A DNA stretch of 32,000 nt, taken from Alkanindiges sp. WGS2144 (GTDB lineage Bacteria > Pseudomonadota > Gammaproteobacteria > Pseudomonadales > Moraxellaceae). Made by a program: the position numbers and the translations under genes. Location: NCBI RefSeq assembly GCF_043950625.1, contig NZ_CP171007.1. One strand, given 5' to 3'. Under the pieces are notes generated by a model. That model was not told the DNA's origin and did no database searches. It saw nothing but the letters and a program-made list of their open reading frames with translations. Positions 1 to 15,326 of this stretch are shown piece by piece. Numbering within the stretch: the first letter of the stretch is position 1; every line of letters starts with the position of its first letter.

Positions 1-3000
1 GCCTACATGGCAGTGAACACGGTTTTATTATGCTGATGTTTGCAGTCTTTTTTCTAAGCTGCCTACATGGCAGTGAACAACCCGCCCTGCCATGGCGGGG
101 CATCCTTTGATTTCTAAGCTGCCTACATGGCAGTGAACACGGAGGCAACCTTCAAGGAGTTGGTTGTCGAGTTTCTAAGCTGCCTACATGGCAGTGAACC
201 ATTGCTTCATACTGATCCTTCCACACGCCATTTTCTAAGCTGCCTACATGGCAGTGAACTCCCAATCCAAACCTTTGAAGAAGGTGCGCAATTTCTAAGC
301 TGCCTACATGGCAGTGAACTCCATAAAAATTCACAAGAATTTTCATTACATTTTCTAAGCTGCCTACATGGCAGTGAACATTTTAAAATTGGCTTCTGCC
401 CTATTTTGTGCTTTCTAAGCTGCCTACATGGCAGTGAACGGATGGCAAATCTGAAACAAAGGGGGATTCTAATTTCTAAGCTGCCTACATGGCAGTGAAC
501 AAGAGCCACTAACCAGCCCCCTAACTGGTATTTTTCTAAGCTGCCTACATGGCAGTGAACCGCCCTGCGTTGTTCTGATGTAGCCTTCAGCATTTCTAAG
601 CTGCCTACATGGCAGTGAACGCAGCACAGCGATTGAGCAAGGTTTTGCTGATTTTCTAAGCTGCCTACATGGCAGTGAACAATTTAAACCCCGCGTCATG
701 TCGGTAATGTCATTTCTAAGCTGCCTACATGGCAGTGAACTTCGCAAACAACATCAAAAACGAGATTTGTAGCTTTCTAAGCTGCCTACATGGCAGTGAA
801 CATACGGTAGTAGCTTGCTTATTACCACCAGATTTTCTAAGCTGCCTACATGGCAGTGAACCAATCGTGACGGTACGAATGCGGTGCTTTAATTTTCTAA
901 GCTGCCTACATGGCAGTGAACGTCCAGCCCTCTTTCCCGGTTACTCCTTTTTTTTTCTAAGCTGCCTACATGGCAGTGAACAGTGGAGCGGGGCTGCGGG
1001 GTCTATGTAATCATTTCTAAGCTGCCTACATGGCAGTGAACAGGGTTTTGAACTTGCCGCGCTGAATGGCTGGTTTCTAAGCTGCCTACATGGCAGTGAA
1101 CGGGTGGTCGCCTTTTAAGTGGTCACTTTCGTTTTTCTAAGCTGCCTACATGGCAGTGAACCTTGCTTGCAACAAGGCTTCTAGTTCTTCTTTTTTCTAA
1201 GCTGCCTACATGGCAGTGAACTGCTTGGCATTGATGATCTGGCCGATCTTCATTTTCTAAGCTGCCTACATGGCAGTGAACAAACTGAACCTTTCCTTCG
1301 TTGATAGCTTCAATTTCTAAGCTGCCTACATGGCAGTGAACGAACCTTTTACGGCATAAGCATTTGGCCCAGCTTTCTAAGCTGCCTACATGGCAGTGAA
1401 CTAGCAGGACGTATTGGGCGACCTGTAAATAAATTTCTAAGCTGCCTACATGGCAGTGAACTTGCTCAAATTCTGCAAAATCGTCAGGGTTCGTTTCTAA
1501 GCTGCCTACATGGCAGTGAACCACTGAAGGCATATTCGACACCATTGCCCTATTTTCTAAGCTGCCTACATGGCAGTGAACCACTGAAGGCATATTCGAC
1601 ACCATTGCCCTATTTTCTAAGCTGCCTACATGGCAGTGAACTGTCCAGCTGCTGGATAGTGATGGTTTCAAAATTTCTAAGCTGCCTACATGGCAGTGAA
1701 CCATTACCACCTGGTTTGCGCCCATAGGTACCTTTTCTAAGCTGCCTACATGGCAGTGAACTTCTTACGAACAAATCAGGGCATTGCTACAGCTTTCTAA
1801 GCTGCCTACATGGCAGTGAACATATTAGTATCAATATCAATTGCTCTTTGCGTTTTCTAAGCTGCCTACATGGCAGTGAACTGCGACCCAAGTATCAGCT
1901 TGATTATTATGATTTTCTAAGCTGCCTACATGGCAGTGAACTTGTTCTGACTGGCTCATCACACTTTCCTTCTTTTCTAAGCTGCCTACATGGCAGTGAA
2001 CTGTGCGCTCTTTTTCCCGGTACTCATCGACCATTTCTAAGCTGCCTACATGGCAGTGAACTTTGGAGTGGGGGGCGGCATACACGCGGTTATTTTCTAA
2101 GCTGCCTACATGGCAGTGAACAAATGCTGCCTAACGACGTGGAATTTCAGGCTTTTCTAAGCTGCCTACATGGCAGTGAACCCAGACAAAAATCCATTAG
2201 CTGGTCGTAAGCATTTCTAAGCTGCCTACATGGCAGTGAACATGGCATCAAGCAGCGGTGTAATCAGCTTGGTTTTCTAAGCTGCCTACATGGCAGTGAA
2301 CATTCCAGATCCGCACGTTGAGCAGGTGTAAGCTTTCTAAGCTGCCTACATGGCAGTGAACTTTTGTCAGTGGTCGGTTTGCTCGGCTTGTCCTTTCTAA
2401 GCTGCCTACATGGCAGTGAACAAGCTGGTTTGCCTTTGCCTGACATGGAACATTTTCTAAGCTGCCTACATGGCAGTGAACGTGCCCTCATCATCGCGTG
2501 GTGGATTCTCATTTTTCTAAGCTGCCTACATGGCAGTGAACGCGTGTTGGGCTGATCGTTCACATTCGTTGTGTTTCTAAGCTGCCTACATGGCAGTGAA
2601 CCAGGTTAAGGCCCTAGGCGGTGAAGTCCGCAATTTCTAAGCTGCCTACATGGCAGTGAACAGCTGGGTCATTGTTTTCTGGTGCGTGATCCATTTCTAA
2701 GCTGCCTACATGGCAGTGAACCGTGCCAAACACCTTTGATGTTCTGAACTGTTTTTCTAAGCTGCCTACATGGCAGTGAACGCCACCATCGGTAAGTTTT
2801 ACAATTTTCTCTTTTTCTAAGCTGCCTACATGGCAGTGAACGCCCCTATGAATTTAACTATTGCCTGCTATCTTTTCTAAGCTGCCTACATGGCAGTGAA
2901 CTACGTGTTAAACCGGCCTTACTGGTTTTGTTTTTTCTAAGCTGCCTACATGGCAGTGAACTTCTAAATAAAACACTATTACCGCCAATTAAGTTTCTAA

Positions 3001-3982
3001 GCTGCCTACATGGCAGTGAACTGCAAACATAGCACCGCATAACAATGGTGATTTTTCTAAGCTGCCTACATGGCAGTGAACATTCAGTACCAATATCTTT
3101 TGTTTTCTTGTTATTTCTAAGCTGCCTACATGGCAGTGAACGGTCTTTAGGCACACAGTTATAATTACCGCTATTTCTAAGCTGCCTACATGGCAGTGAA
3201 CTTCTTGTTTTGTCGCGGAGCAAGATTTTAGCGGTTTCTAAGCTGCCTACATGGCAGTGAACAACCATCTTGGTATTGTTGAAGGTGAGCGCGGTTTCTA
3301 AGCTGCCTACATGGCAGTGAACTGGGATCGTTAGGGTCTTTGGGTGGATTGTTATTTCTAAGCTGCCTACATGGCAGTGAACAAAAGCAAAGCGGTAATG
3401 AGAGGGGGGAAGTATTTCTAAGCTGCCTACATGGCAGTGAACAGTTCGGGTAGGATTGGTTGTTGCTCTACCCATTTCTAAGCTGCCTACATGGCAGTGA
3501 ACACGCAGGCCAAGCCTTAATGGCGTGGTGTGTTTTTCTAAGCTGCCTACATGGCAGTGAACATAGTAGTAAAGATTTTGGGCAGGCCGCATTTTTTCTA
3601 AGCTGCCTACATGGCAGTGAACATGAGATTAAGGCCTTTTTTGATGCACACAAATTTCTAAGCTGCCTACATGGCAGTGAACGAAGGAAACCTGCCGGAC
3701 AGCCTACAACTACATTTCTAAGCTGCCTACATGGCAGTGAACTTGTGTTTTTGGCGCTAACTTTTCGACTGGCTTTTCTAAGCTGCCTACATGGCAGTGA
3801 ACTTTTACCTGCAAAAACATCAGAGCGATTAAACTTTCTAAGCTGCCTACATGGCAGTGAACCCCAAACCAAGTAAGGCAGCACGACGGTTAATTTTCTA
3901 AGCTGCCTACATGGCAGTGAACGTGGGTTATTGGGATCGTTAGGGTCTTTGGGTTTTCTAAGCTGCCTACATGGCAGTGAAC
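1..3982 (-). CRISPR. Type I-F CRISPR array: 67 repeats (the first is truncated by the window edge) and 66 spacers; the array continues beyond position 1
   Basis: The 28-nt repeat reads TTTCTAAGCTGCCTACATGGCAGTGAAC on the + strand, which is GTTCACTGCCATGTAGGCAGCTTAGAAA on the - strand. This is the classic I-F repeat with the CTGCC/GGCAG Cas6f hairpin. The period is 60 bp (28+32), with four 33-nt spacers at 139-171, 440-472, 741-773 and 3202-3234. All visible repeats are identical. Orientation is set by the adjacent minus-strand cas operon and leader. Confidence 0.98.
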
Positions 3983-4114: not shown

Positions 4115-4705
4115 TCAAAACTCGGGAACACTAGATTCCGAGCTTAATCCATAGGTGCTAAAAACCTGACTGGCAGATTGTTCAGCAGGCTGCTTTTCAA
4201 TAAACAATTTAAACGGCTGAGCACTGGTTAGACTTTTTAGCTGAATAAATGGCAAGTCTGAGGTGGTTACTACGTTCTGATAGCGGCTTAAGGCTTCATC
4301 AAAATCAATATCACCCCGTTTTACTCGATGGCGTGCCAACCGTTCAGCATTGGTTTTAGGCTGTTTGCGTTTAAAGCAGGCATAACCTGTAATCTTTTCC
4401 TCAGGTACTGGGCGAATAGATGTGATATGCACATAATCCGTAAGCCGTTCCAGCCATTTTTTGATGTTGAGCTGATCTAGCTCATTTTCGGTTTGGGAAA
4501 ACAGCCGAAGCTTTGTGCCAAGAAAGCCTATTTTCTTTTCTGGATTAAACTGATACTGCGGAAAAGAAACTCCAATGCTTACTTTGTCATCAGCGTTTTT
4601 TATCTCGGCAAGCGCGAGGTGTAATTGCTGGTACAGCTTTGACCATAGAAAATACGTGGGTGCATCCTCTTGCGGTAAAAGCGTGAGTTCAATGTAAAAG
4701 GCCAT
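4115..4705 (-). CDS. cas6f: Cas6f/Csy4 crRNA endoribonuclease (196 aa)
   Basis: Last gene of the csy operon, next to the leader. It is collinear with Pseudomonas Csy4 as I remember it (IGVSFP, NxERLxRR, LPFxxLxSxS..F.LFI, YGLS...VPxF). Its start overlaps the csy3 stop (TAATG). Confidence 0.95.
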   Translation of the reverse strand: MAFYIELTLLPQEDAPTYFLWSKLYQQLHLALAEIKNADDKVSIGVSFPQYQFNPEKKIGFLGTKLRLFSQTENELDQLNIKKWLERLTDYVHITSIRPVPEEKITGYACFKRKQPKTNAERLARHRVKRGDIDFDEALSRYQNVVTTSDLPFIQLKSLTSAQPFKLFIEKQPAEQSASQVFSTYGLSSESSVPEF

Positions 4706-5748
4706 TACTTATCACTCTCACCAAAGACCCCGCCACGAACTAAAATAGCCATGACATAATGCTGCTGTTCAATTTCAGGAATCTTGCCCTCATTAACCCA
4801 GGCATCAAAAAGACTATAGAAATCTTTTTTGTCTGCAGGCTGGCGATAAGCACGTCCTTCCGAGGTTACAGAACCATATGGTTCAACCGCGATAGGTTTA
4901 CTTGCCTCGGGATACCAGTTATCGATAGTGCGTAAGGCATTACCAATTTTCTGCGAGTGGATACCCGCGTCTTTATCTTTAATTTTGTACAGGGTTTTAC
5001 TTTTTGCACCTTTAGTATTTCCACCTGACAGTATAAGTTCCTGGGATGGATAAACTTCCTGTCCCTCACCTAAACGAGCAAAGCCAATAACCCGCAATAA
5101 AACATGCTCATTACCAGTTAAACCTGCCTGAATCCAGCTGGATAATTGCTCCAAAGCTGGCGCTTGCTGGCTGTCTACCGCCACGTCATTTAAACGGTTT
5201 GCCAGTGCATCAAAATTCAAAGTTTCTTTTGGTTGTCCGTCAACAATACGAGCGACAGCTACGCTGACATTTTCAGCACCAATCCGGTTACGCCATAAAA
5301 ATCGGCCATTGGCTAAATTAACTGAATAACGTCTAGCCAATTCATAAAACTGATTTTCTGTCTTGTAGCTTGATACCACATTATTAAGACGCTCAGCAAA
5401 ACTTTCATTATTACAAGCGGATGGTTGCCCTACGTTAGGCAACACCCGAAGTGTAAAAGTCACTGCAACTGTATCCTTGCCCTGCGGTAACGCTGCAACA
5501 TCAACCGTTTGTAAATTTGGTTTTTCCACTGCTGCGTTAATATAGGCAGGGTCAATTTCCTTACTACTCTTAGGACGGTTAGAGATTGTTCCGCGTACTG
5601 ATTTTTCCTCAACCTGGATTGCAATAGCTCCCTCACCCTGTGAAATATCATTCCAGTTTACGGCGGTCATACGGCCATCTGACGGATCTAAATGACGGTT
5701 GAATGATAAAACAGACGCTGTTTTGATTTTTGCTGGTGCTTTAGCCAT
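4705..5748 (-). CDS. cas7f: Cas7f/Csy3 backbone subunit (347 aa)
   Basis: Position and size are typical for csy3, in a tightly packed operon. The ending ...ILVRGGVFG is typical of Csy3. Confidence 0.93.
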   Translation of the reverse strand: MAKAPAKIKTASVLSFNRHLDPSDGRMTAVNWNDISQGEGAIAIQVEEKSVRGTISNRPKSSKEIDPAYINAAVEKPNLQTVDVAALPQGKDTVAVTFTLRVLPNVGQPSACNNESFAERLNNVVSSYKTENQFYELARRYSVNLANGRFLWRNRIGAENVSVAVARIVDGQPKETLNFDALANRLNDVAVDSQQAPALEQLSSWIQAGLTGNEHVLLRVIGFARLGEGQEVYPSQELILSGGNTKGAKSKTLYKIKDKDAGIHSQKIGNALRTIDNWYPEASKPIAVEPYGSVTSEGRAYRQPADKKDFYSLFDAWVNEGKIPEIEQQHYVMAILVRGGVFGESDK

Positions 5749-5750
5749 GA

Positions 5751-6869
5751 TTAAATATCCTCTTCCTCTGAATCTGTAAATGAAAAATCAATTGATTGCA
5801 TATCTAAATCATCAAACGATGAGCTAGGAGCAGGTTGTGGCGCAAAAGGTTGAATGAGTGAATAGATACCCGCATCTGAATTTGGGTCATAAGCCCATAA
5901 AATATGAGTTAGGTCATCAATTCGGTGGGGGCTTTTCCATTCGCCCAAGCTAAGCAACGTTTCCGCAAAAGTCACTGGATATTGCTCATCACGCACGCCA
6001 GCTACAGAACCTGCCTCCAGCACATCAGTTAATGCACCATATCCAATTGGCACTGGAACTAGCCAGCCTTTTAAGTGAGCAGGTCGAGTGCGAAGCTCCC
6101 ATTTTCCTGATATAGGCTGATCGTGTTCAGTTTGCTCGCCTGCCTTTTGAACAGGACTACTGACTAAATTCAGACGGCTAATATCCAGTAGCGTGTCCAG
6201 TAAATCTGCTTCGCTACTCTGAGTTGCCAAGTAGGCTGGATGTTGGTTTAACCACTGTTGATGAGCCATGAGTACATCATGCCGATGAATTAAGGCAAAA
6301 CCAGGAAGCAAGTAACGGCGCAATTTTTTAGTTATCTCCGTGGCTTTAGCCTGTGACCAATTGACCAGTCTGGGTCTCACGCGTTGATGGGGCAAAATCA
6401 CTCCACCTGCCAGGCGCATCCCATAGACAAGCTGGTTAAGTTTGGCGAGTAAGTTTTGGGTTTGTGCATTTAACTCCACATCATTAGCAGATAAATGACT
6501 GTCCAGCGTGTCACCCGTCAGACCAATAACCAGACTGACCTCCATATGACCCTTACCTTCTTCTACCAGCGCTGGTGTAGAACCATTAGCTTCTAGCGGA
6601 GGGCGAGCCAAATTTAACTGATACGGTGTATAACGATACTCACTGGTTTTAGTCACTTGCGGCAGGAACTGATGGCAAATAATACCAATACCACAGCATT
6701 TAATAGCTTGATAATCATTAATAGCATTTAGCTTGCGTTGTAATGCATGCGCAAAACCTGTAAAAGCACTCGGTGCAGGAAAACCCCAAGTAAGATGACT
6801 GCTAATAATTGACGCATTTTCAATCTGTAAACGTACAAGATAAAGCGCTTTAGGATATGCATAAGTCAT
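5751..6869 (-). CDS. cas5f: Cas5f/Csy2 (372 aa) with an unusual acidic C-terminal tail
   Basis: Operon position between csy1 and csy3. It is about 45 aa longer than the ~327-aa Pseudomonas Csy2, and the extra length ends in ...FDDLDMQSIDFSFTDSEEEDI. Confidence 0.88.
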   Translation of the reverse strand: MTYAYPKALYLVRLQIENASIISSHLTWGFPAPSAFTGFAHALQRKLNAINDYQAIKCCGIGIICHQFLPQVTKTSEYRYTPYQLNLARPPLEANGSTPALVEEGKGHMEVSLVIGLTGDTLDSHLSANDVELNAQTQNLLAKLNQLVYGMRLAGGVILPHQRVRPRLVNWSQAKATEITKKLRRYLLPGFALIHRHDVLMAHQQWLNQHPAYLATQSSEADLLDTLLDISRLNLVSSPVQKAGEQTEHDQPISGKWELRTRPAHLKGWLVPVPIGYGALTDVLEAGSVAGVRDEQYPVTFAETLLSLGEWKSPHRIDDLTHILWAYDPNSDAGIYSLIQPFAPQPAPSSSFDDLDMQSIDFSFTDSEEEDI

Positions 6870-8210
6870 TTAGGCAAATTCCTCTTTAAGCAGTCGTAAT
6901 TTTTCTCGCAAGGCCAATGACCACACTCGTGCTTCAGCATCATCCAAGTCTTGTAACTTGCCTCGAGTAGTTAGAATCTTGTTCAGCCAAGTACCAAAGT
7001 TATAACCAACCTCAGTGTGCCAGTCACGTTCCCGATATGCTTCAAGCCACTCTTGCTCTTCTTTGGTTAGCTCACCCCGATCCTCCTTGATAAATAATTC
7101 TTCCCGATAGCCCCGATCTAGCCAAAAACTTTCCACGCGATTAAAATCTCGGCTTTTCTCCATTGTCCAGCCTGTAGTAGCACTTTGCTGAAGCTCAAGG
7201 CTCATATCAACAACGCAATCAGTGAGTTGCTCAACCAAATCGTCACGCTTTTTCCGAAACTCGCTATTATTTACACCATATTCATGACGATACATATGGA
7301 CAATAGCACCTAACAGTGGCTTCACATCTTTGCGATTACCAAGGTAACCCGTAAATACAGAACCCGACTTTGGTAGCTCTACAATCTGCCCCTGCCATAC
7401 GGGTGGCAGCGACGGCAATAACCACATAGCACCACGACGGTCACTATTAAGCTGCGAAATATTCTGCGGTTTTGATCCACCATAGTTGTGAATTAGCAAA
7501 CCAGGATACTCCCGACTTTCCTGCTCTCTGTGCAATTTTTTAAAACGTGCCTCGCGTAATACCTTGCTTTCTTCACTAAAACGATCGCTCAGGATATTTT
7601 GATAAGCACGATGCACCAGAGCACTCGGGTATAAAAGTACTAATACATGATAGCCGTCTTTTTCTACAGGAAAATAAACCTGCTTGGATAAGCGCCCAGC
7701 ATTCAATTGAGCAGGCGCTTTACTAAACGCCAAAAACCGCTGGTAACGGATGTGTGCTTGCTCAGATTGGTTTGCTAACGCAGCAATAAAATCAGCATCT
7801 GCTTTTAATAAGTGCTCAAGCAAGGAAACGTCGTTAAACTTTTGACGCAATAGTTTAAACACATCCAGAACCGCAGCATTACCAATCACGTCAGGTTCAA
7901 GGCTCAGGCCTTGCGAACCGATATAATCATGGGTCTTCTGTGCTTCAGAATAAAACATAGCAGATGCTTTAGAGTTTGGATGATGCTGCTTCGGTGTATG
8001 CGTTGCCAGTCGAATTTGACTGATACGCAGACTGGCCTCTTCCAGCCAGGTTTCAACATCATATTTTTCTAAAAGCTTTTCACGTTCTGCCGTATCCTCT
8101 GGCTTGAGCTTATCGAGTTTTTCGTTTAACCGACTCTGGATATATTGCTCAATCACTGCTCGAATAGTGGGCGGTGGAGAACCTGCTATCTCTTCTTTTG
8201 CATTTGACAT
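6870..8210 (-). CDS. cas8f: Cas8f/Csy1 large subunit (about 446 aa from the ATG at 8210; the ORF track extends to a TTG at 8222)
   Basis: Collinear with Pseudomonas Csy1 motifs (KLDKLxPED, GNAAxLDVFK, KQxYFP, GGxKPQNISQLN, WLLPSLPP). The true start is uncertain (8210 ATG or 8222 TTG). Confidence 0.92.
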   Translation of the reverse strand: MSNAKEEIAGSPPPTIRAVIEQYIQSRLNEKLDKLKPEDTAEREKLLEKYDVETWLEEASLRISQIRLATHTPKQHHPNSKASAMFYSEAQKTHDYIGSQGLSLEPDVIGNAAVLDVFKLLRQKFNDVSLLEHLLKADADFIAALANQSEQAHIRYQRFLAFSKAPAQLNAGRLSKQVYFPVEKDGYHVLVLLYPSALVHRAYQNILSDRFSEESKVLREARFKKLHREQESREYPGLLIHNYGGSKPQNISQLNSDRRGAMWLLPSLPPVWQGQIVELPKSGSVFTGYLGNRKDVKPLLGAIVHMYRHEYGVNNSEFRKKRDDLVEQLTDCVVDMSLELQQSATTGWTMEKSRDFNRVESFWLDRGYREELFIKEDRGELTKEEQEWLEAYRERDWHTEVGYNFGTWLNKILTTRGKLQDLDDAEARVWSLALREKLRLLKEEFA

Positions 8211-8267
8211 AGGATTTCTCAAAACTTGTTTTACAAAGTGAGTTATTTTTTAAAACAATTATTTGTT

Positions 8268-8458
8268 ATCATCTACGACAGTTTAACCATCGTAGATGAT
8301 GTTGGTTACCCAACTGTTCATACTATTATGCGCAGATGTTTGCCAAGCATCGTTTCCTCCTTACCCTATCGGGTGATGTGTGATCTCCCCAGATCGGTGG
8401 TTAAGCCCATTAAAGATGTAGTCTTTAATAAAATTCTTATGAATTACTCATAGGTGAT
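8268..8458 (-). ncRNA. Candidate CreT-like small RNA or csy-operon leader: 5' UTR, perfect SD, 10-codon mini-ORF (MLGKHLRIIV) with tandem AUA codons, then an 11-bp stem-loop
   Basis: On the minus strand: TAAGGAGG at 8363-8356, a 5-nt spacer, and ATG at 8350-8348. The ORF is atg ctt ggc aaa cat ctg cgc ATA ATA gta tga, with the stop at 8320-8318. A perfect inverted repeat ATCATCTACGA/TCGTAGATGAT lies at 8268-8278/8290-8300 with an 11-nt loop, 17 nt after the stop. The 5' end is inferred from the predicted promoter and the 3' end from the stem-loop. There is no expression evidence. Confidence 0.45.
8434..8454 (-). promoter_or_regulatory. Putative Csy-complex binding site (CC PAM plus a partially matching protospacer for the mini-CRISPR spacer), at about +5 to +25 of the predicted promoter
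   Basis: The minus strand reads CC|TATGAGTAATTCATAAGAA, compared with the psi-spacer TATGATCAATTAAACTCTT. Positions 1-5, 8-11 and 13 match. Two of the three proximal mismatches fall at positions 6 and 12, which are flipped out in type I complexes. Positions 14-19 do not match. Confidence 0.5.
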
Positions 8459-8464
8459 CAACTC

Positions 8465-8493
8465 AATATGAACTGGTTTTGTTCTCTTGACAA
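8465..8493 (-). promoter_or_regulatory. Predicted sigma70 promoter reading toward the mini-ORF and cas8f
   Basis: On the minus strand: TTGTCA (8493-8488), 17 nt, CATATT (8470-8465). The predicted TSS is about 8458. Confidence 0.45.
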
Positions 8494-8506
8494 GACCATT
8501 TACACT
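8479..8506 (+). promoter_or_regulatory. Weak candidate promoter for the crRNA-like gene
   Basis: TTGTTC (8479-8484), 16 nt, TACACT (8501-8506). This would start transcription at about 8513, just at psiR1. The match to consensus is poor. Confidence 0.25.
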
Positions 8507-8513
8507 ATTTTTT

Positions 8514-8588
8514 CTTCACTGTTGAGTAAACAGCTTAGAAATATGATCAATTAAACTCTTGTTCACTGCCATATAGGCAGCTTAGATT
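8514..8588 (+). ncRNA. Degenerate mini-CRISPR / crRNA-like gene (CreA- or CreR-type): psiR1 8514-8541, 19-nt spacer 8542-8560, psiR2 8561-8588. It is inverted relative to the cas operon and the main array
   Basis: psiR2 is GTTCACTGCCATATAGGCAGCTTAGATT, 25/28 identical to the array repeat (one change in the loop, two at the 3' end). psiR1 is CTTCACTGTTGAGTAAACAGCTTAGAAA, 21/28 identical. It keeps the 8-nt 5' handle CTTAGAAA, and its stem is changed from CTGCC/GGCAG to CTGTT/AACAG, which is compensatory. Confidence 0.75.
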
Positions 8589-8625
8589 CTAGGCTTTATC
8601 AGGCTTAATCCCTGATAAAACCTAG
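8589..8625. other. 15-bp stem-loop (14/15 paired) straddling the cas2-3 stop codon
   Basis: CTAGGCTTTATCAGG (8589-8603) pairs with CCTGATAAAACCTAG (8611-8625). The 7-nt loop contains the cas2-3 stop (8605-8607). There is no U-tract on either strand. Confidence 0.4.
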
Positions 8626-11600
8626 CCAGTCATGGTATAACCATTTTTTGTTGTCCTGTAGCGTAGGCAAGTTCAGGCTTAAGTATCGACTACAATTATC
8701 CTGCCATTCATACTCTGATGAAGTTGTAACCAAATATTTGCTCAAAGCGTTTTCAGGCTTTTGGTTCGGCCAGCAGTGTATCTGCGGATTGACTTCAAGC
8801 TCTACTCTTCTCATTAGACTTTCTTTAAGCAGCCAATTACCTGTGTCCTGATTGTATTGCTGTAGTTGAAGTGATTGTTCTAGATGCTCTGCTCGTAATG
8901 CATGTAGGGATTCTGGCTGCGACTTTCTAAATTTACTCAAAGTTTGCAGAATACCTGTGTAATGAATGAGCGTGCTCCAGAAACTATAGGCAGGAAATTT
9001 TATGGGAGATAATTCACCAAATATTCTCATTTCTGGGCAGATTCCGTGCCCCAACAGTATGTGATGCATACGGTCATGCTCTAAATCCACCAGAGCTGGA
9101 TAACCAAATTTGTCATAATTTGCTTTCAAGTACATAGCTGGTGGCTGCTCTAACCTCGCAATTGCATCCAGCTGTTTAAAATGTGCCTTACGCAGTAAGC
9201 CATTGTCCACGCTATCATTGCGTGCTTTTAAAAAATGTCGATTGGGCAGAAACTTAAAACCCTCCGCTTCAAAACCAGGGCGCGAGAAACAGGCTTGTTG
9301 CGGATGCTTAAAGTGACGAATATTACTTTCCATTAAAAATACATTGGACTGTGCATAAGGCTCAGGTCGATGTCGTCGCGTACGCCCAGAAGTTTGTATG
9401 ATGGAACGCATGGATGAGGGCTCTAGAATCATCCAGTCATAGTCATGATCTCGTCCGACTTCGCATACTGGCGACGCCAAAACTAAAATAACGTGTTGTT
9501 GTTCTGGATATCGATTAAGCCAGCCTTGTACTAGTTGATGATCATGAGGCTGCTGTCCCTGATTACGGTCTAATAACTCATCCAGATATTTTTCAATATT
9601 TGCCCGAATTAATAGGGGAAACCGCGAATGATAAACACATAAATGAATACGAACATCTGGATCAATCTGCTGTTTTAATAATAGCTGTGCAATAGCAGCG
9701 AGTGGATCAATATTGGCAAAACGAACTAAACCAACGCTATATTGCTTGCCTGTTTTAGGATCCGTAATTGCATTTAAGTGATGGGCTTTTAGTGTTGTAG
9801 TGAGTATGTGCTGAGTAAAAATTTGCTCCCATTTCTCAGAAGAACTGATTTGCCTTGGCAATCCAACCCATTCTAGCGTGCGCCGATGAATTAAAGGGGC
9901 TTGTGCCTTTAAATAAGCCACACGATTTTTGGTAAATTTTCTATGGGCTTTTAAAAAAACAGGATTGGCTTCAGAGCTACTGATTGCGGTATTACAAGGG
10001 ATGACTTCATGACAAATACTTTTTTCATTTTCATCAAACCATGCGGCAATGATGGGCTGATTAGCCTGGGTGCGATGTGCATTATAAAATTTACGTCCTG
10101 AACTATAAGCCAGATATAAACCATTGATTTCAGCAGGTGTCAGGGTTGCAGAAGAAAGTAAAACCCGACTTCCCATTAAGCCTGCCCAATAAACCAGTCG
10201 CGCCAACGCATAATAATCTTCAGGTGAAAAATCATCGGGCTCATCAAAAACTAGATCCGAAGACATCAGGCGCAGCATGGGAGCAATCTGACGGCCACCA
10301 CGTGTACTCTCTGTGGCAGGAATCAGATGATCTATAGTGCAACATAAAATAGGGCTCATCAGCATTTTTTTGACTTGATGGTTACCCTTTAACCATTTGG
10401 CAAACAGATGATCAGCAGGTAGTATGCCTTCAAAGTCAATCTCAAGTTCGTCAAAATCAATATTAACTCCCTCTTCATAAAGTCCAGTCAAAGATTCTGA
10501 ACCCATGGTTTCAGCCAGTTCAGGATTAGTTTCGGGGTCAAAATTTTGCAGCTCTTCATCAATAATCTGGGCTGAAGTATTTTGACTGTACTGCTCAAAA
10601 ATTTCCTTAACTGCGCCACCACCTACCATAATGGCTAAATCAGTTTCATCCAGATTTAGGCGTTGACGTAAAGCCTTGCCTGTTTGCAAAGTTAAGGTGC
10701 GTAGGCCTAAAGCCACATTAAAACGTGCACCTTTCTCAGAGTCGGCCAGACCATACATGATGCGTGTATTCGCAAGCGTTTTACCTCGGCCTGTTGACGC
10801 TAAATTCACCCCGAAAAAGCCATGGTTTGGATAATTTTTCTGGATAAAGCGAGCTTCCTGATAAGATTTATCCTGCCACTTGTAATAGCTATTGTTGGTT
10901 TTACTTTCTAAACTTTTTTGTGGTGGTAAACGCTCAAATAGCTCATCCATGCGGGTAAAAGCGCCCATTAACTGCCGTACAGATTGACTTACGCCTATCA
11001 GATGATCATCTAAAGGCTGTTTTAGTTCACCCGTTTTATCTGTATTGGCATAACGCGTATAAGTCTTATCATGCCATTTTGGCGTTGGTTCACAGCTTGA
11101 ATAATAATGATCAGACAGCATTAAAGCCAAGCGGGAAATATGACTGATGTAAGGATCAGATAAATTTGGAGGGGAACCTGCTGGTATAAGCTGTTTGAGT
11201 TTTATCGCGCAACTATTTACCTCTTTACACCATGTTTTGCTATTAAAAGGGATATGTTTAGCTTCTATATTCCAGCACTGTTTGATTTCTTTTGCCCGAT
11301 TTTTATCATCTGCTTCGTAATGTCGTGGGTAACACCATTTGAAATTAAGCTCATCTAGCACAAAATCAAACTTTGCTAGAGAATAGTCCTTGTCTTGGCT
11401 TTTATCTTTACCCAGTAAATAGCTGGGTATAGGCAGTCGGTGATGAGAAACGATGAGCCACGCCACTATCTGAGCAATTTGCGGTAAGTCCTGAAATGGT
11501 GATAACAGGATAGCTTGATCAGGATGATCCTTAACCAGTGCCTCTAGCCAGACATAGTCTACGTTTTGAGGTGAAAGCGTGGTTAATTTTTCAATCCATG

Positions 11601-12117
11601 CCTTGTCATTTGTTCCGCACGCTTTAACGAATGCCTCAAATAAGCGTAGCGACACCCATTCATGCCGAAATGGATCAGCTATCGGTTTTTTATTAAATTT
11701 AGCATTGGCTAATTTTTTAGCAAAAAATGGATTAATTTTCCCAAAGTCATGAAATAAGGCCGCAATACGGCTCAGCGCTGTGATCAATGCTGCTGTTTGC
11801 CAATTGGTATCGCTATAGTCCAGTTTAATTGGCTTAACCGTTCTATTGACTGGCACATGGCCTTCGCTATTAAACTTACTACGCTGTCCCACAATCCACA
11901 TCAATTCACTGTGCCGCCGTGAACGTATCCAGTGGCAGGACACCGCCGTATTTTTACTGGCAGTTTTACGTAACAAGCGTTTCGCTGCCAGCAACCCATC
12001 CTCAGTAATCACCGTTTGCCAGGTATTATCCCCAATGCGGTTGGCAAAGGCATCCAACACACGGCGGGTACGCGGCAGGGCTTTTTTCTCGCATTGAGAA
12101 ATAAAGGTAACAATCAT
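8605..12117 (-). CDS. cas2-3: Cas2-Cas3 fusion (Cas2/3 nuclease-helicase, 1170 aa)
   Basis: N-terminal Cas2-like domain, an HD nuclease motif (LFHDFGK...SHH), a helicase Walker A (STGRGKT) and a DExD-like box (FDEPDDF). Its ATG overlaps the cas1 stop (ATGA). Confidence 0.97.
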   Translation of the reverse strand: MIVTFISQCEKKALPRTRRVLDAFANRIGDNTWQTVITEDGLLAAKRLLRKTASKNTAVSCHWIRSRRHSELMWIVGQRSKFNSEGHVPVNRTVKPIKLDYSDTNWQTAALITALSRIAALFHDFGKINPFFAKKLANAKFNKKPIADPFRHEWVSLRLFEAFVKACGTNDKAWIEKLTTLSPQNVDYVWLEALVKDHPDQAILLSPFQDLPQIAQIVAWLIVSHHRLPIPSYLLGKDKSQDKDYSLAKFDFVLDELNFKWCYPRHYEADDKNRAKEIKQCWNIEAKHIPFNSKTWCKEVNSCAIKLKQLIPAGSPPNLSDPYISHISRLALMLSDHYYSSCEPTPKWHDKTYTRYANTDKTGELKQPLDDHLIGVSQSVRQLMGAFTRMDELFERLPPQKSLESKTNNSYYKWQDKSYQEARFIQKNYPNHGFFGVNLASTGRGKTLANTRIMYGLADSEKGARFNVALGLRTLTLQTGKALRQRLNLDETDLAIMVGGGAVKEIFEQYSQNTSAQIIDEELQNFDPETNPELAETMGSESLTGLYEEGVNIDFDELEIDFEGILPADHLFAKWLKGNHQVKKMLMSPILCCTIDHLIPATESTRGGRQIAPMLRLMSSDLVFDEPDDFSPEDYYALARLVYWAGLMGSRVLLSSATLTPAEINGLYLAYSSGRKFYNAHRTQANQPIIAAWFDENEKSICHEVIPCNTAISSSEANPVFLKAHRKFTKNRVAYLKAQAPLIHRRTLEWVGLPRQISSSEKWEQIFTQHILTTTLKAHHLNAITDPKTGKQYSVGLVRFANIDPLAAIAQLLLKQQIDPDVRIHLCVYHSRFPLLIRANIEKYLDELLDRNQGQQPHDHQLVQGWLNRYPEQQHVILVLASPVCEVGRDHDYDWMILEPSSMRSIIQTSGRTRRHRPEPYAQSNVFLMESNIRHFKHPQQACFSRPGFEAEGFKFLPNRHFLKARNDSVDNGLLRKAHFKQLDAIARLEQPPAMYLKANYDKFGYPALVDLEHDRMHHILLGHGICPEMRIFGELSPIKFPAYSFWSTLIHYTGILQTLSKFRKSQPESLHALRAEHLEQSLQLQQYNQDTGNWLLKESLMRRVELEVNPQIHCWPNQKPENALSKYLVTTSSEYEWQDNCSRYLSLNLPTLQDNKKWLYHDWLGFIRD

Positions 12118-13076
12118 ACTTCTGCCCCCGGTTTAAAGGACAACGCCGCCGCCTTTACCTGATCAAACATCCAATCCAAACAGCGATGCTCAGTAAATTT
12201 CTGCAAAATCTGCTGGCGGAATTCCTGCTCGGTCGCTTTTTCCTTGGCGCAGACAAATGCCCAGGGCAGCACGATAGCATCCTTAATGAGATCAGCCACA
12301 TCAAATACCAACGCACCGCGGCGAGTTTTGCCATGCATCACAGCAAAACCATGTGGAATGCCTAAAACCCAAAGTGTGGTAGCAGCAAGTCCGTATGCCA
12401 GATAGTTGCCATGATTTAAAAAATCATTGGCTAGGTCGCCCTGCTCATGATTACGGTTAAAATCCGCTGCGCCACAACGCGTGGCAGCGGCTTTATACAG
12501 TTGTTTGGTGGTCATGGCTTCAGCCAGCAAAATATCGCCCACTTTATCCAAATAGCCTAGCTTCTTTTCAAAACCCGCTAAAGCCTGCTCAATATCGCGG
12601 TCATCAATATAAAAACCTTCAGCTTGCAGATCGCGGTCTTTTGCCCAGATCCTGCGGATAAACTCAATACGAGCCTGCTGGAATTGCTTGGCAACCGTTA
12701 AACGCTTGGTGTCATCAAACCAGAATTGCATCCAGCCTTGCATGTATTCAGTAGGCCGATATTCACTTTGCGGCGTCATCCATTCAATTTCACAGCCCAT
12801 AAATAGCGGTGTGCCACCTCCACCAGTAAAACCGACCAGTACCCCGGCACTAGCCAGCATCCGCATAGCGGCTTGAGTAATAGAGGTGCCCGTACCCAGC
12901 ATAATAACCGTGGTATTGGCAATCGGAATATTCCAGTACTGATTTTCATTTTTGGCTTCGGTTAGATAAAGCACGCGGCCATCTTTTTGCATCACCCGAC
13001 AATGCTCAAGATAATAAAGATTAGCCCGCTTGGAGTGCAAAATGGCTTTCAAATCCGACGGGTTGAGCTGTTCCAT
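12114..13076 (-). CDS. cas1: Cas1 integrase, type I-F (about 320 aa from MEQLNPSDLK; the ORF track extends to 13136)
   Basis: Near-collinear with Pseudomonas I-F Cas1 as remembered (SxLKxILHSKRANLYYLxHCRV, WNIPIANTT, GTGTSITQAAMR, HGKTRRGxLVFDVADLIKD). The start was chosen by that alignment; upstream ATGs at 13106 and 13136 are possible. Confidence 0.96.
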   Translation of the reverse strand: MEQLNPSDLKAILHSKRANLYYLEHCRVMQKDGRVLYLTEAKNENQYWNIPIANTTVIMLGTGTSITQAAMRMLASAGVLVGFTGGGGTPLFMGCEIEWMTPQSEYRPTEYMQGWMQFWFDDTKRLTVAKQFQQARIEFIRRIWAKDRDLQAEGFYIDDRDIEQALAGFEKKLGYLDKVGDILLAEAMTTKQLYKAAATRCGAADFNRNHEQGDLANDFLNHGNYLAYGLAATTLWVLGIPHGFAVMHGKTRRGALVFDVADLIKDAIVLPWAFVCAKEKATEQEFRQQILQKFTEHRCLDWMFDQVKAAALSFKPGAEV

Positions 13077-13144
13077 AGTGTTTAAACCAATCCATGTTTT
13101 CTTCATTATTACTTTATTTTTATAAAAAACCATCACTTACTTTT

Positions 13145-13194: not shown

Positions 13195-14443
13195 ATTTTG
13201 AACAACAAGTGTTTTAAGCCTTTTTACGCTTCATCCACAAATAACCGATCAGCAAAATCAACAGCCAAATCGGACTTACAATCAATGACTGTCGGGTGTC
13301 TTCTTCCAGTGCCAAAATACCCACGGTAAAAATAAAAAAGGCAATGACGATGTAGCTCATCAACACTCCGCCCGGCATTTTATAAATCGACTGCGCATGC
13401 AGCTCAGGCCGGGTTTTGCGGTACTTAATATAAGCAACCATCACCACCACCCATACACTAATAAACAAAATGGTCGATAGCGTGGTTGCCAGGGTAAATG
13501 CACGCAAGGTATTGGGCACAAAGTACTGGAGCAGGGCTCCACCCATAATAAACGCACACGATACCACCAGCGCGTTAGAAGGTACTGCCGCCTTTGACAA
13601 CCTACCAAACATGCTGGAGGCCTGATTATCCTTGGCCAAACCAAACAGCATACGACTGGTAGAAAACACCCCACTATTCATGGATGACATGACTGAAGAC
13701 AACACCACCAGGTTCATAATAATGGCAGCGGTTGGAATACCTGCCATCAAGAACAGCTCTACAAATGGGCTTTTGTCCGCCACCACTTGCCGCCATGGGG
13801 TGACCGACATCACTACCATAAGTGCCAGCACATAAAACAGAATAATCCGGAGCGGAATGGAGTTCACGGCCTTGGGCAAATTGCGCATGGGGTCTTTGGT
13901 TTCTGCGGCTGTAGTACCCACCAGCTCAACCCCCACAAAGGCGAAAATGGCAATCTGAAAACCAGCCAGAAAGCCGTGACTTCCATTGGGAAACATGCCG
14001 CCATCATTCCATAAATTGGCAAGCGATGCGGTACTACCACCAGGCGATTGAAAACCAGTGACCACCATGTATGCGCCAATCACCACCAGTGCAATAATAG
14101 CAATAATCTTGATCAGGGCAAACCAGAACTCTACCTCGCCAAACAGGCGCACGGTGAGCAGGTTTAATCCCAGCAAAAACAGCACACAGCCTGCACTAAT
14201 CGCCGCACCGCCCAGCGGGGTAAACTGCTGACCTTGCGGCAGCCAGAAGGTTAAATAACTATTAATAGCCGCAAGATCGGCAATACCAACCGTGATCCAG
14301 CATAACCAATACGTCCAGCCCATAAAAAAGCCGACTTTTGGCCCTAGCAAATCATGGGTTAAATCAATAAAGGATTTATATTGCAAATTGGATAACAATA
14401 ATTCGCCCAGCGCCCGCATGACGAAAAAAATCATTAAGCCAAT

Positions 14444-15326
14444 AGACCTCTTGCGAAAGTCGTTATTGCAAGTTCATCCGGTTTACCAGTGCAGCGATTA
14501 AGTTAATGCGTAAACCGAATCTTTTCCGTCGATTTCGATAGCGTTCACTTAGTATTCTAAATCTTTTCAATTGACTGTTAATATGTTCGATTACAACTCG
14601 TATTTTTCCAATCATTTTATTGTACTTTTTCTCAACATCAAATAAGGGTAAATTCTTCTTTTTCTTTATTGGCATCAATAATTTAAAGCCATCTTGCTCT
14701 AACCCATAGTACCCTAAATCGGTCATAACATATTCAAAATGTTTGAATTTTTTTACTGTTTTTCTTGCCAATTTAATATCATGCTGACTGCCAGACGATA
14801 TATCTACTCCTATGATTTGTTTGCTCTTCGGATGATAGATCACTTGGGCTTTTAGCGTATGTTTCTTCTTTTTACCACTGTAGAACTTACTCTGATTTTT
14901 TTTTCGGGCGTTCTATTGAACATTCTGTAGCATCAATAATGACCCAGTTAAATTGTTCGTTTGCTGTGGTAATGCTTCGTTTTGGCAAGGTAAAACGTCT
15001 TGATTTCATTAATGCATCTTCAACCTTTTTAATAGTTCGATTCACATTACTTTCAGCGATATGGTAATTTGCAGCCAATTCCAATTGAGTGCTGTAATTC
15101 CGTAAGTAATTGAGTGTTAATAATAATTGATCCTCTATAACTAAAGTATGAGGACGCCCAGATTTCTTTTTAAGTGATTCTGCTTCTTTTAAAACTTCGA
15201 CCATTTCACTAAAAACTGGTCGAGGTACACCAACCAAGCGCTTGAATTCAGAATCTGAAAAACGGTTTAATTTCTGATATTTCATGAAATCTATATTGAG
15301 GCAGTTTTTACTTTCGCAAGAGGTCT
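14444..15326 (-). mobile_element. IS5-family (DDE_Tnp_4 / PIF-Harbinger-like) insertion sequence, 883 bp
   Basis: Perfect 17-bp terminal inverted repeats, AGACCTCTTGCGAAAGT at 14444-14460 and its reverse complement at 15310-15326. A 3-bp target duplication AAT lies at 14441-14443 and 15327-15329. Confidence 0.9.
14463..15285 (-). CDS. IS transposase in two frames (orfA 14887-15285, orfB 14463-14843) joined by a +1 shift at an A9 run
   Basis: orfA carries an HTH and the first catalytic D (IIDATECSIERPKKK). The +1 frame continues QSKFYSGKKKKHTLKAQVIYH... with MTDLGY and IEHINSQLKRF motifs. The A9 run on the minus strand is at 14896-14904. Confidence 0.85.

Follow-up and report, generated by a model that had tools for sequence, protein, structure and literature searches.

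The 32,000-nucleotide stretch of Alkanindiges sp. WGS2144 DNA analysed here (contig NZ_CP171007.1; the whole stretch is referred to as the window) carries on its minus strand a type I-F CRISPR-Cas locus with six cas genes, all full length and assigned to the expected Pfam families. The CRISPR array consists of at least 66 identical 28-nt repeats (GTTCACTGCCATGTAGGCAGCTTAGAAA) at 51-3982, with spacers of 32-33 nt, and continues past the left end of the window. Exact protein matches agree with the named source, which the taxonomy lists as Moraxellaceae bacterium WGS2144. In the 382 bp between the cas2-3 stop and the cas8f start lies a two-repeat mini-CRISPR, psiR1-psiS-psiR2. Most probably this is the antitoxin gene, creA, of a CRISPR-regulated toxin-antitoxin (CreTA) module protecting the type I-F effector. 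This identification follows from the homology of the gap to the creTA modules of Acinetobacter strains WCHA45 and LoGeW2-3. All the parts of CreTA are present in the published order and orientation: read along the minus strand, the gap contains a promoter-like site, a target with a CC protospacer-adjacent motif (PAM), a Shine-Dalgarno (SD) sequence, a 33-nt mini-open reading frame (mini-ORF) and a conserved hairpin (Table 1).

An initial annotation of this DNA, made from the letters alone, had described two repeat-derived elements on the plus strand, opposite to the array and the cas genes and separated by a 19-nt spacer. This was borne out when the array repeat was searched for on both strands of the window at a tolerance of 9 mismatches: the plus strand holds exactly two matches, 19 nt apart and antisense to the cas operon and to the array, whose 66 perfect copies all run the other way. 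By a binomial estimate for 64 kb, a 28-mer matching at 21 or more positions is expected about 0.003 times and one matching at 25 or more about 1e-7 times; chance is far from accounting for a neighbouring pair of this kind. The full Cas6f hairpin attributed to psiR2, along with its count of 25 matched positions, is upheld by the repeat scan, by folding and by Rfam, where it scores 38.4 bits against CRISPR-DR4 (gathering score 35). Its first 20 nt (8561-8580) would be the 3' hairpin handle of the mature RNA, while the last 8 nt are degenerate. L089 and L090, two close relatives, have exactly the same psiR2. In psiR1, every substitution listed earlier is correct, as are the count of 21 and the intact 8-nt 5' handle CTTAGAAA (8534-8541): the CTGCC/GGCAG stem of the array repeat has become CTGTT/AACAG by four substitutions that turn two C-G pairs into T-A pairs, the three basal pairs are unchanged, and the rest of the divergence amounts to G1>C plus two changed bases in the loop. 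Whether folded singly or within a 146-nt context, psiR1 and psiR2 each give the canonical hairpin of 5 bp with a loop of 5 nt.

That the psiR1 stem had evolved by compensatory change, as was proposed from this one sequence, is also seen across the family. In an alignment of 12 psiR1 sequences of the family with the array repeat (13 sequences), 98.5% of the stem cells are paired and four of the five pairs show double-sided changes (CG/UA, GC/AU, UA/AU), with the basal C-G pair nearly invariant and the CTTAGAAA handle invariant; when the partner column is shifted by 1-3 positions, pairing falls to 3-45%. Selection on the psiR1 stem is thus supported by the alignment. The predicted 47-nt product (8 + 19 + 20) fits the family as well, since the WCHA45 homologue yields an RNA of 48 nt, 8 + 20 + 20 by small-RNA sequencing, with Csy4-dependent processing (PMC10097628). 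Beyond psiR2, a 15-bp hairpin that spans the cas2-3 stop codon is followed by a small hairpin and a U6 run, both hairpins being part of the minimum-free-energy fold of 8510-8655 (z = -3.9). These may terminate creA transcription; their sequence is kept in relatives, but it overlaps the 3' coding sequence of cas2-3.

The psiS guide matches the CC-flanked site in the gap at positions 1-5, 8-11 and 13 and is mismatched at 6, 7 and 12. The site, CC followed by TATGAGTAATTCA, lies 10 nt downstream of the -10 hexamer of the putative creT promoter. In I-F complexes guide positions 6 and 12 are unpaired; when these are excluded, 11 informative positions remain among the first 13 of the guide, and 10 of them match. 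An equal or better match arose in 11 of 20000 dinucleotide-shuffled gaps and with 5 of 20000 shuffled spacers. When whole loci were searched, the best CC-flanked match to the locus's own psiS was found in the gap in 8 of 9 related loci. The 14-nt psiS of the relative L053 (TATGACTAATTAGG) is matched by CC followed by TATGAGTAACTCGT, a site homologous to that of the window; between the window and L053, position 13 goes from A to G in the guide and likewise in the target. A second CC-flanked site in the window, CC followed by TGTGACCAATTGA at 6350-6370 on the plus strand, within and antisense to cas5f, also reaches 10 of 11; it was rejected as an extra target, and is probably due to chance, since seed position 2 is mismatched and L053 lacks an equivalent site.

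The element had been classed at the outset as a CreA/CreR-type crRNA-like (CRISPR RNA-like) regulator, and this much was right; the choice between CreTA and CreR was left open, however, and the toxin gene was missed, though a creT homologue is present. Its presence points to CreTA, a standalone CreR being defined by having no co-occurring toxin gene, and a reading as CreR only was rejected on this ground. The putative creT is 71% identical to that of WCHA45 over 173 nt, 93% to that of L046 and 86% to that of L047, and in alignment the creT region is 68-72% identical to the creT of WCHA45, LoGeW2-3 and ANC3789. A blastn search against plasmids gave a match (E = 2e-17) that falls exactly between csy1 and cas3f on the LoGeW2-3 plasmid, in a gap with no annotated feature; in PLSDB, the cas3f-csy1 gap is without an annotated feature in two related plasmid records, the gene table listing no RNA genes. 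The window mini-ORF is in register with the published "conserved 33 bp ORF", having the same length and position, and a 114-nt segment of creT folds with z = -5.0. The layout described for the CreT of Halobacterium hubeiense and H. hispanica is present too: an SD, a mini-ORF with two consecutive rare codons, and a 3' stem-loop. The putative creT promoter is the only minus-strand promoter-like site in 8100-8750, and the counterparts of its two hexamers in alignment are TTGCCA/CATATT for L053 and TTGCAA/TACATT for L046 and L047. Nearer to cas8f, about 25-35 nt upstream of its start, is a conserved block, ACTTTGTAAAA (8225-8245, minus strand), which is found at homologous positions in the creT-containing loci L046, L053, L055, L087 and WCHA45; a plus-strand promoter-like match at 8230-8259, which is at chance level, overlaps it.

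Table 1. Coordinates of the cas genes and of the predicted CreTA components in the window
Feature	Position	Strand	Remarks
cas1	12114-13136	-	full length, Pfam
cas2-3	8605-12117	-	full length, Pfam; stop at 8605-8607
cas8f	6870-8210	-	full length, Pfam; ATG at 8210
cas5f	5751-6869	-	full length, Pfam
cas7f	4705-5748	-	full length, Pfam
cas6f	4115-4705	-	full length, Pfam
csy operon (cas8f, cas5f, cas7f, cas6f)	4115-8210	-	Pfam Csy1-Csy4, E 5e-96 to 3e-61
psiR1	8514-8541	+	CTTCACTGTTGAGTAAACAGCTTAGAAA; 21/28 vs array repeat (7 mismatches); hairpin CTGTT-GAGTA-AACAG
psiS	8542-8560	+	TATGATCAATTAAACTCTT; 19-nt spacer-like guide; matches CC-flanked site in the cas2-3/cas8f gap
psiR2	8561-8588	+	GTTCACTGCCATATAGGCAGCTTAGATT; 25/28 vs array repeat (3 mismatches); near-canonical
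Predicted mature CreA RNA	8534-8580	+	47 nt = 8-nt handle + 19-nt psiS + 20-nt hairpin; predicted from WCHA45
Candidate creA terminator	8589-8649	+	strong hairpin 8589-8625, then small hairpin and U-run 8632-8649
Putative creT promoter	8465-8493	-	-35 TTGTCA (8493-8488), -10 CATATT (8470-8465)
CreA target	8434-8454	-	PAM CC (8454-8453), then TATGAGTAATTCATAAGAA (8452-8434)
Putative creT	8262-8458	-	small toxin RNA gene by homology to WCHA45 creT; ends approximate
creT small hairpin	8395-8382	-	GATCT-GGGG-AGATC
creT SD	8363-8356	-	TAAGGAGG; near-perfect Shine-Dalgarno
creT mini-ORF	8318-8350	-	33 nt; ATG CTT GGC AAA CAT CTG CGC ATA ATA GTA TGA
creT 3' hairpin	8300-8268	-	13 bp

The intact csy operon would provide both the effector onto which CreA is loaded and the endonuclease that processes it. 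In the array, the neighbouring spacers 1522-1553 and 1582-1613 have the same sequence, ATAGGGCAATGGTGTCGAATATGCCTTCAGTG in the crRNA sense. At the other edge of the locus, directly upstream of cas1 (13214-15285), an amino-acid permease ORF that is without about the first 40 profile positions abuts a DDE transposase in two ORFs (14463-14843 and 14887-15285); the truncated permease and split transposase suggest an insertion sequence (IS) at the CRISPR-Cas locus edge.

Related loci were collected by a protein search for Cas8f homologues, followed by retrieval of the contigs for twelve of them. The homologues, most of them metagenomic, are 62-94% identical to the window Cas8f, those that are named being all from Acinetobacter; a contig scan with Cas8f peptides yielded only relatives at 34% identity or less. 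The initial annotation had proposed that other cas2-3/cas8f gaps be compared, and most of the fetched loci do have the same psiR-psiS-psiR layout: their gaps measure 380-450 bp, the mini-array follows the cas2-3 stop immediately and in antisense, and after it come a promoter, a CC-flanked site matching the psiS of that locus, and the conserved SD, mini-ORF and hairpin. The position and orientation of the mini-array are kept across Moraxellaceae loci whose Cas8f is 69% to 94% identical to that of the window. The psiS lengths in the family are 14, 17, 18, 19, 20, 21, 26 and 30-31 nt, all below 32; many lie near 32 minus a multiple of 6, which may be linked to Cas7f steps. An exact-pattern scan of metagenomes for AACAGCTTAGAAATATGA gave 28 matches, of which only L064 and L071 are real, both of the L053 type, the rest being chance 18-mers, and no further creA of the window type was found in it. 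For phage-borne copies or mimics of creA, blastn against phages gave no match, and pattern scans of viral sequences turned up one chance 18-mer and a 16-repeat array in a predicted viral contig, with no phage mini-array. In L053 and L054 (1-2563) cas2-3 and creA are separated by an inserted toxin-antitoxin pair, BrnT/BrnA; cas2-3 is there called as two ORFs (837 and 303/308 aa) and may be disrupted, while creTA and csy look intact. Much more distant loci from Amphritea and Desulfocapsa (L027 and L005, Cas8f about 30% identical) have an antisense hairpin, a CTTAGAAA handle, a short spacer (also 19 nt in L027) and a second repeat within 1 kb upstream of cas8f; by a crude regular expression, such elements occur in 2-3 of 45 loci.

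In L089, L090 and L046, Cas8f is more than 90% identical to that of the window and creT is near-identical, yet in direct alignment psiS, psiR1, the promoter and the target are wholly different. Set against window 8150-8660, the segments L089:2020-2560, L090:360-900 and L046:1-430 show three unrelated psiS/psiR1/promoter/target cassettes. The L089 pair is itself well matched, psiS TACTAGAGCTTTCAGCTAAT differing from CC followed by TACTATAGCTTACAGCTGAT at positions 6, 12 and 18 only. Wholesale difference of the cassette between near-identical loci suggests that the guide/target block is exchanged as a unit; a segment-wise recombination test was blurred by gapped local alignment, and it is the direct alignment that shows the replacement. 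The related loci L051/L052 (2797-3000) and L088 (650-834) have gaps of only 185-205 bp and no creT, with the antisense mini-array and CC-flanked target directly upstream of cas8f; this is a CreR-like arrangement within the same lineage.

For this organism we infer CreA processing, creT repression, toxicity and autoregulation from homology and anatomy. Cas6f would cut the plus-strand transcript at the base of each psiR hairpin, giving the 47-nt crRNA-like RNA, which with Cas8f, Cas5f, Cas7f and Cas6f would form a short Csy complex, with a predicted four copies of Cas7f in place of six. This complex would bind the CC-flanked, partly complementary site, which from about +5 to +25 immediately follows the divergent promoter of creT, and keep that gene from being transcribed into its small RNA with strong SD, 33-nt mini-ORF and hairpins. 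The short guide and partial pairing would prevent the licensing of Cas2-3 and leave the chromosome uncut. The initial annotation's expectation of binding without cleavage by a shortened complex has published support: in the I-F1 system of Aggregatibacter, Cascade assembles on spacers of 14-176 nt, and only R-loops of at least 32 bp trigger Cas2/3 (PMC7296934). If the Csy complex were lost or inhibited, by mutation, IS insertion or an anti-CRISPR, creT would be derepressed and translation poisoned, so that such cells would be selected against. Bound upstream of cas8f on the cas strand, the complex probably also dampens transcription of the csy operon.

Several observations weigh against the element being the antitoxin gene of a working CreTA. 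No sigma-70-like promoter was found directly upstream of psiR1 at the scan threshold. Guide and target pair at only 10 of 19 positions, with position 7 mismatched and 14-19 unpaired, and in WCHA45 positions 2-5, 7-9 and 13-17 are each essential (PMC10097628). The AUG-centred 5-bp hairpin (nt -1 to 4 with 12 to 16), required for WCHA45 CreT toxicity (PMC10097628), has four of its five pairs in the window, with a C4.A12 mismatch; a base-by-base count gives 3/5 in L046, 4/5 in L047, 2/5 in L089 and 5/5 in L053, so that the toxin may be weakened or may work differently. One alternative is that the guide serves mainly as a Cas autoregulator (CreR), throttling transcription of the csy operon, with the creT-like sequence a vestige. 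The weakened AUG hairpin of the clade, the non-toxicity of ANC3789 creT in tests (PMC10097628) and the publication of I-F1 mini-arrays as autoregulators (PMC10120712) favour it, as do the short-gap loci L051/L052, L088 and the published WCHA60, which keep a mini-array and CC-flanked target directly upstream of cas8f without creT, and the fact that the sole minus-strand promoter-like site between cas2-3 and cas8f adjoins the target. Against this, the creT core is 95% identical to that of close relatives (local alignment) beside a replaced cassette, which argues for constraint on creT, a gene that still has an intact SD, start codon and 33-nt frame as well as intact hairpins; we consider it unlikely that autoregulation is the main role. 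The two roles are compatible, moreover, and the short-gap loci and the position of the promoter also make an additional autoregulatory role possible beside CreTA; transcripts reading through from cas2-3 would likewise be stopped by Csy bound at the target. In H. hispanica, CreA represses both creT and cas8.

The remaining alternatives deny the element a guide function altogether. It might be functionless today, left over from the decay of a CRISPR array or from a repeat that was duplicated at random: psiR1 is degenerate, as are the last 8 nt of psiR2, the spacer is truncated, and Shmakov et al. (PMC10120712) regard many standalone repeats as spurious. This is very improbable given that position and orientation are conserved across the Moraxellaceae loci, that stem changes are compensated and the handle invariant, that the guide/target match is well above chance, and that divergence is confined to places where processing does not need the sequence. 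The repeat hairpins could instead be only terminators or RNA-stability elements for cas2-3, with no guide RNA gene, since only 17 nt separate the element from the cas2-3 stop and hairpins abound in this region (fold z = -3.9). On the cas strand, however, the hairpins are without following U-runs, and the invariant CTTAGAAA handle, the CC-flanked psiS match and the homology to a processed RNA would all be left unexplained; hardly any weight can be given to this possibility.

Within creT, the window differs from the published family in codons 8 and 9 of the mini-ORF. These are ATA ATA (8329-8324, minus strand) in the window, L047/L049, L053 and L089/L090, and ATA GTA in L046. In the 22 published members, codon 8 is always AGA and codon 9 is AGG, AGA or AGT (PMC10097628). 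In L046, the closest relative by Cas8f (94%), the change from ATA ATA to ATA GTA (236-268) falls in the loop of a small hairpin. Among the 7721 codons of the window ORFs, ATA is the rarest Ile codon (9% of Ile codons), no sense codon is rarer than AGG and AGA, and in-frame ATA-ATA is not found. The small hairpin (window 8316-8333, minus strand; mini-ORF nt 18-35; columns 24-41 of alignment A2) encloses codons 8-10 and the stop and shows double-sided changes in five of seven pairs across the family, though in the window only four A-U-rich pairs form (8330-8319). It is not described in the main text of Wang et al. 2023 (PMC10097628). The codon 8 change from AGA to ATA (G>T) is matched across it by GTC to GTA (C>A) at codon 10, and because of this compensation the ATA/AGA alternation may preserve structure rather than codon rarity.

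The alternation of ATA in the window with AGA elsewhere recalls the AUA/AGA alternation of haloarchaeal tRNA-sequestering CreT (PMC8501985). A reading of ATA ATA against AGA AGG as a clear signature of tRNA sequestration was nevertheless downgraded. In WCHA45 codons 8 and 9 are individually dispensable, single synonymous changes there keeping toxicity, which is lost by synonymous changes at codons 2, 3 and 5 only (PMC10097628); these results argue against a tRNA-sequestration mechanism for the AGA-AGG branch. The AGT or GTA of some members at codon 9 and the compensation between codons 8 and 10 weaken the reading further. One speculation is that CreT of the ATA branch has switched from AUG-hairpin toxicity to sequestration of, or stalling on, the rare AUA-decoding tRNA-Ile, as in H. 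hubeiense. Three things point that way, namely the eroded AUG hairpin, the retention of ATA ATA in four of five distinct sequences and the rarity of ATA among Ile codons; we regard such a switch as doubtful. If true, it would be the first bacterial case of AUA-tRNA sequestration, and the wholesale exchange of psiS, psiR1, promoter and target among loci whose Cas8f identity exceeds 90% would reflect selection for orthogonal guide/target pairs, possibly driven by phage-borne CreA mimics.

The initial annotation considered an I-F example of such RNAs novel, and this does not hold: mini-arrays between cas3 and cas8 of I-F loci have been published (Shmakov 2023), and the WCHA45-type family was dissected experimentally in 2023. 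The window module is well supported by homology as a newly found copy of this already characterised CreTA family in a new Moraxellaceae lineage, Alkanindiges. Unreported in the literature compared are ATA-ATA in place of AGA-AGG and the difference in the psiS/psiR1/promoter/target block between near-identical loci. The WCHA45-type family would thus be extended to WGS2144 and gain a branch in which the mini-ORF has ATA-ATA and the 19-nt guide pairs very weakly, and the cas3f-csy1 gap, unannotated in related plasmid records, would hold two small RNA genes. The cassette swaps provide a natural series of orthogonal guide/target pairs, while the ATA/AGA alternation along with the covarying hairpin offers a handle on the toxin mechanism, which the original authors left open. 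Current understanding is not overturned by this module.

Closest to the window are the I-F CreTA modules of Acinetobacter sp. WCHA45, LoGeW2-3 and ANC 3789 described by Wang et al. 2023 (Nat Commun 14:2078; PMC10097628), in which some 400 bp between cas3 and csy1 contain psiR1-psiS-psiR2, a partial target flanked by CC and, in divergent orientation, a conserved mini-ORF of 33 bp preceded by an SD. Supplementary Data 2 of that paper lists 22 homologues; L055 and L057 correspond to entries there, and the window is absent. For WCHA45 they found that antitoxin activity needs Csy4 and the Csy complex but not Cas1 or Cas3, and that repression is transcriptional and tracks guide/target complementarity in compensatory mutants; CreA maturation, Csy-dependent repression of the creT promoter and CreT toxicity were shown for WCHA45 and LoGeW2-3 only (PMC10097628). 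The window resembles these modules in gap length, in the antisense mini-array directly after the cas3 stop, in the CC-PAM target downstream of a divergent promoter, in a creT with an SD, 33-bp mini-ORF and 3' hairpin, and in having a conserved psiR2, a divergent psiR1 and a guide below 32 nt. It differs from WCHA45 in its host (Alkanindiges, Moraxellaceae), in its 19-nt psiS with 10 paired positions against 17/20, in ATA ATA against AGA AGG at codons 8-9, and in the C.A mismatch of the AUG hairpin.

Other known systems are related more by logic than by toxin. CreTA1 and CreTA2 of Pseudomonas aeruginosa I-F (Wang et al. 2026 preprint, 10.64898/2026.06.02.729485) are, by description, like the window in lying in the cas2-3/csy1 gap, with a two-psiR creA, a conserved psiR1 handle, a CC PAM, a creT made up of SD, mini-ORF and hairpin, and orthogonal CreA/target pairs; their psiS is 20 nt, giving a 48-nt RNA, with mismatches at positions 6 and 12. 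Their toxin has no relation to that of the window, its ORF being 15 nt long and containing two codons for proline, and their target is upstream of the -35, whereas that of the window is downstream of the -10. The cas3/cas8 mini-arrays present in about 15% of I-F1 loci, one of them validated in P. aeruginosa (Shmakov et al. 2023, PMC10120712; see also Liu et al. 2023, 10.1101/2023.03.10.532045, for CreR), share with the window the cas3-cas8 location, transcription opposite to cas3 and a partial match to a PAM-flanked site upstream of cas8; I-F1 CreR are defined as standalone guides without a toxin, unlike the window with its creT homologue. In Acinetobacter baylyi ADP1, CrePA (10.1101/2024.01.05.574328), also Moraxellaceae I-F, has the same gap, creA logic and CC PAM, but its toxin gene is a 324-bp KilAC-domain protein gene and its psiS is 30 nt. 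The I-B CreTA of H. hubeiense (Cheng et al. 2021, PMC8501985) has, like the window, a two-psiR creA and a mini-ORF in which two consecutive AUA codons are followed by a stem-loop, with homologues that, by description, have AGA AGA; it differs in being archaeal, type I-B, leaderless and located around cas6, and the dependence on AUA that was shown there is only a hypothesis for the window.

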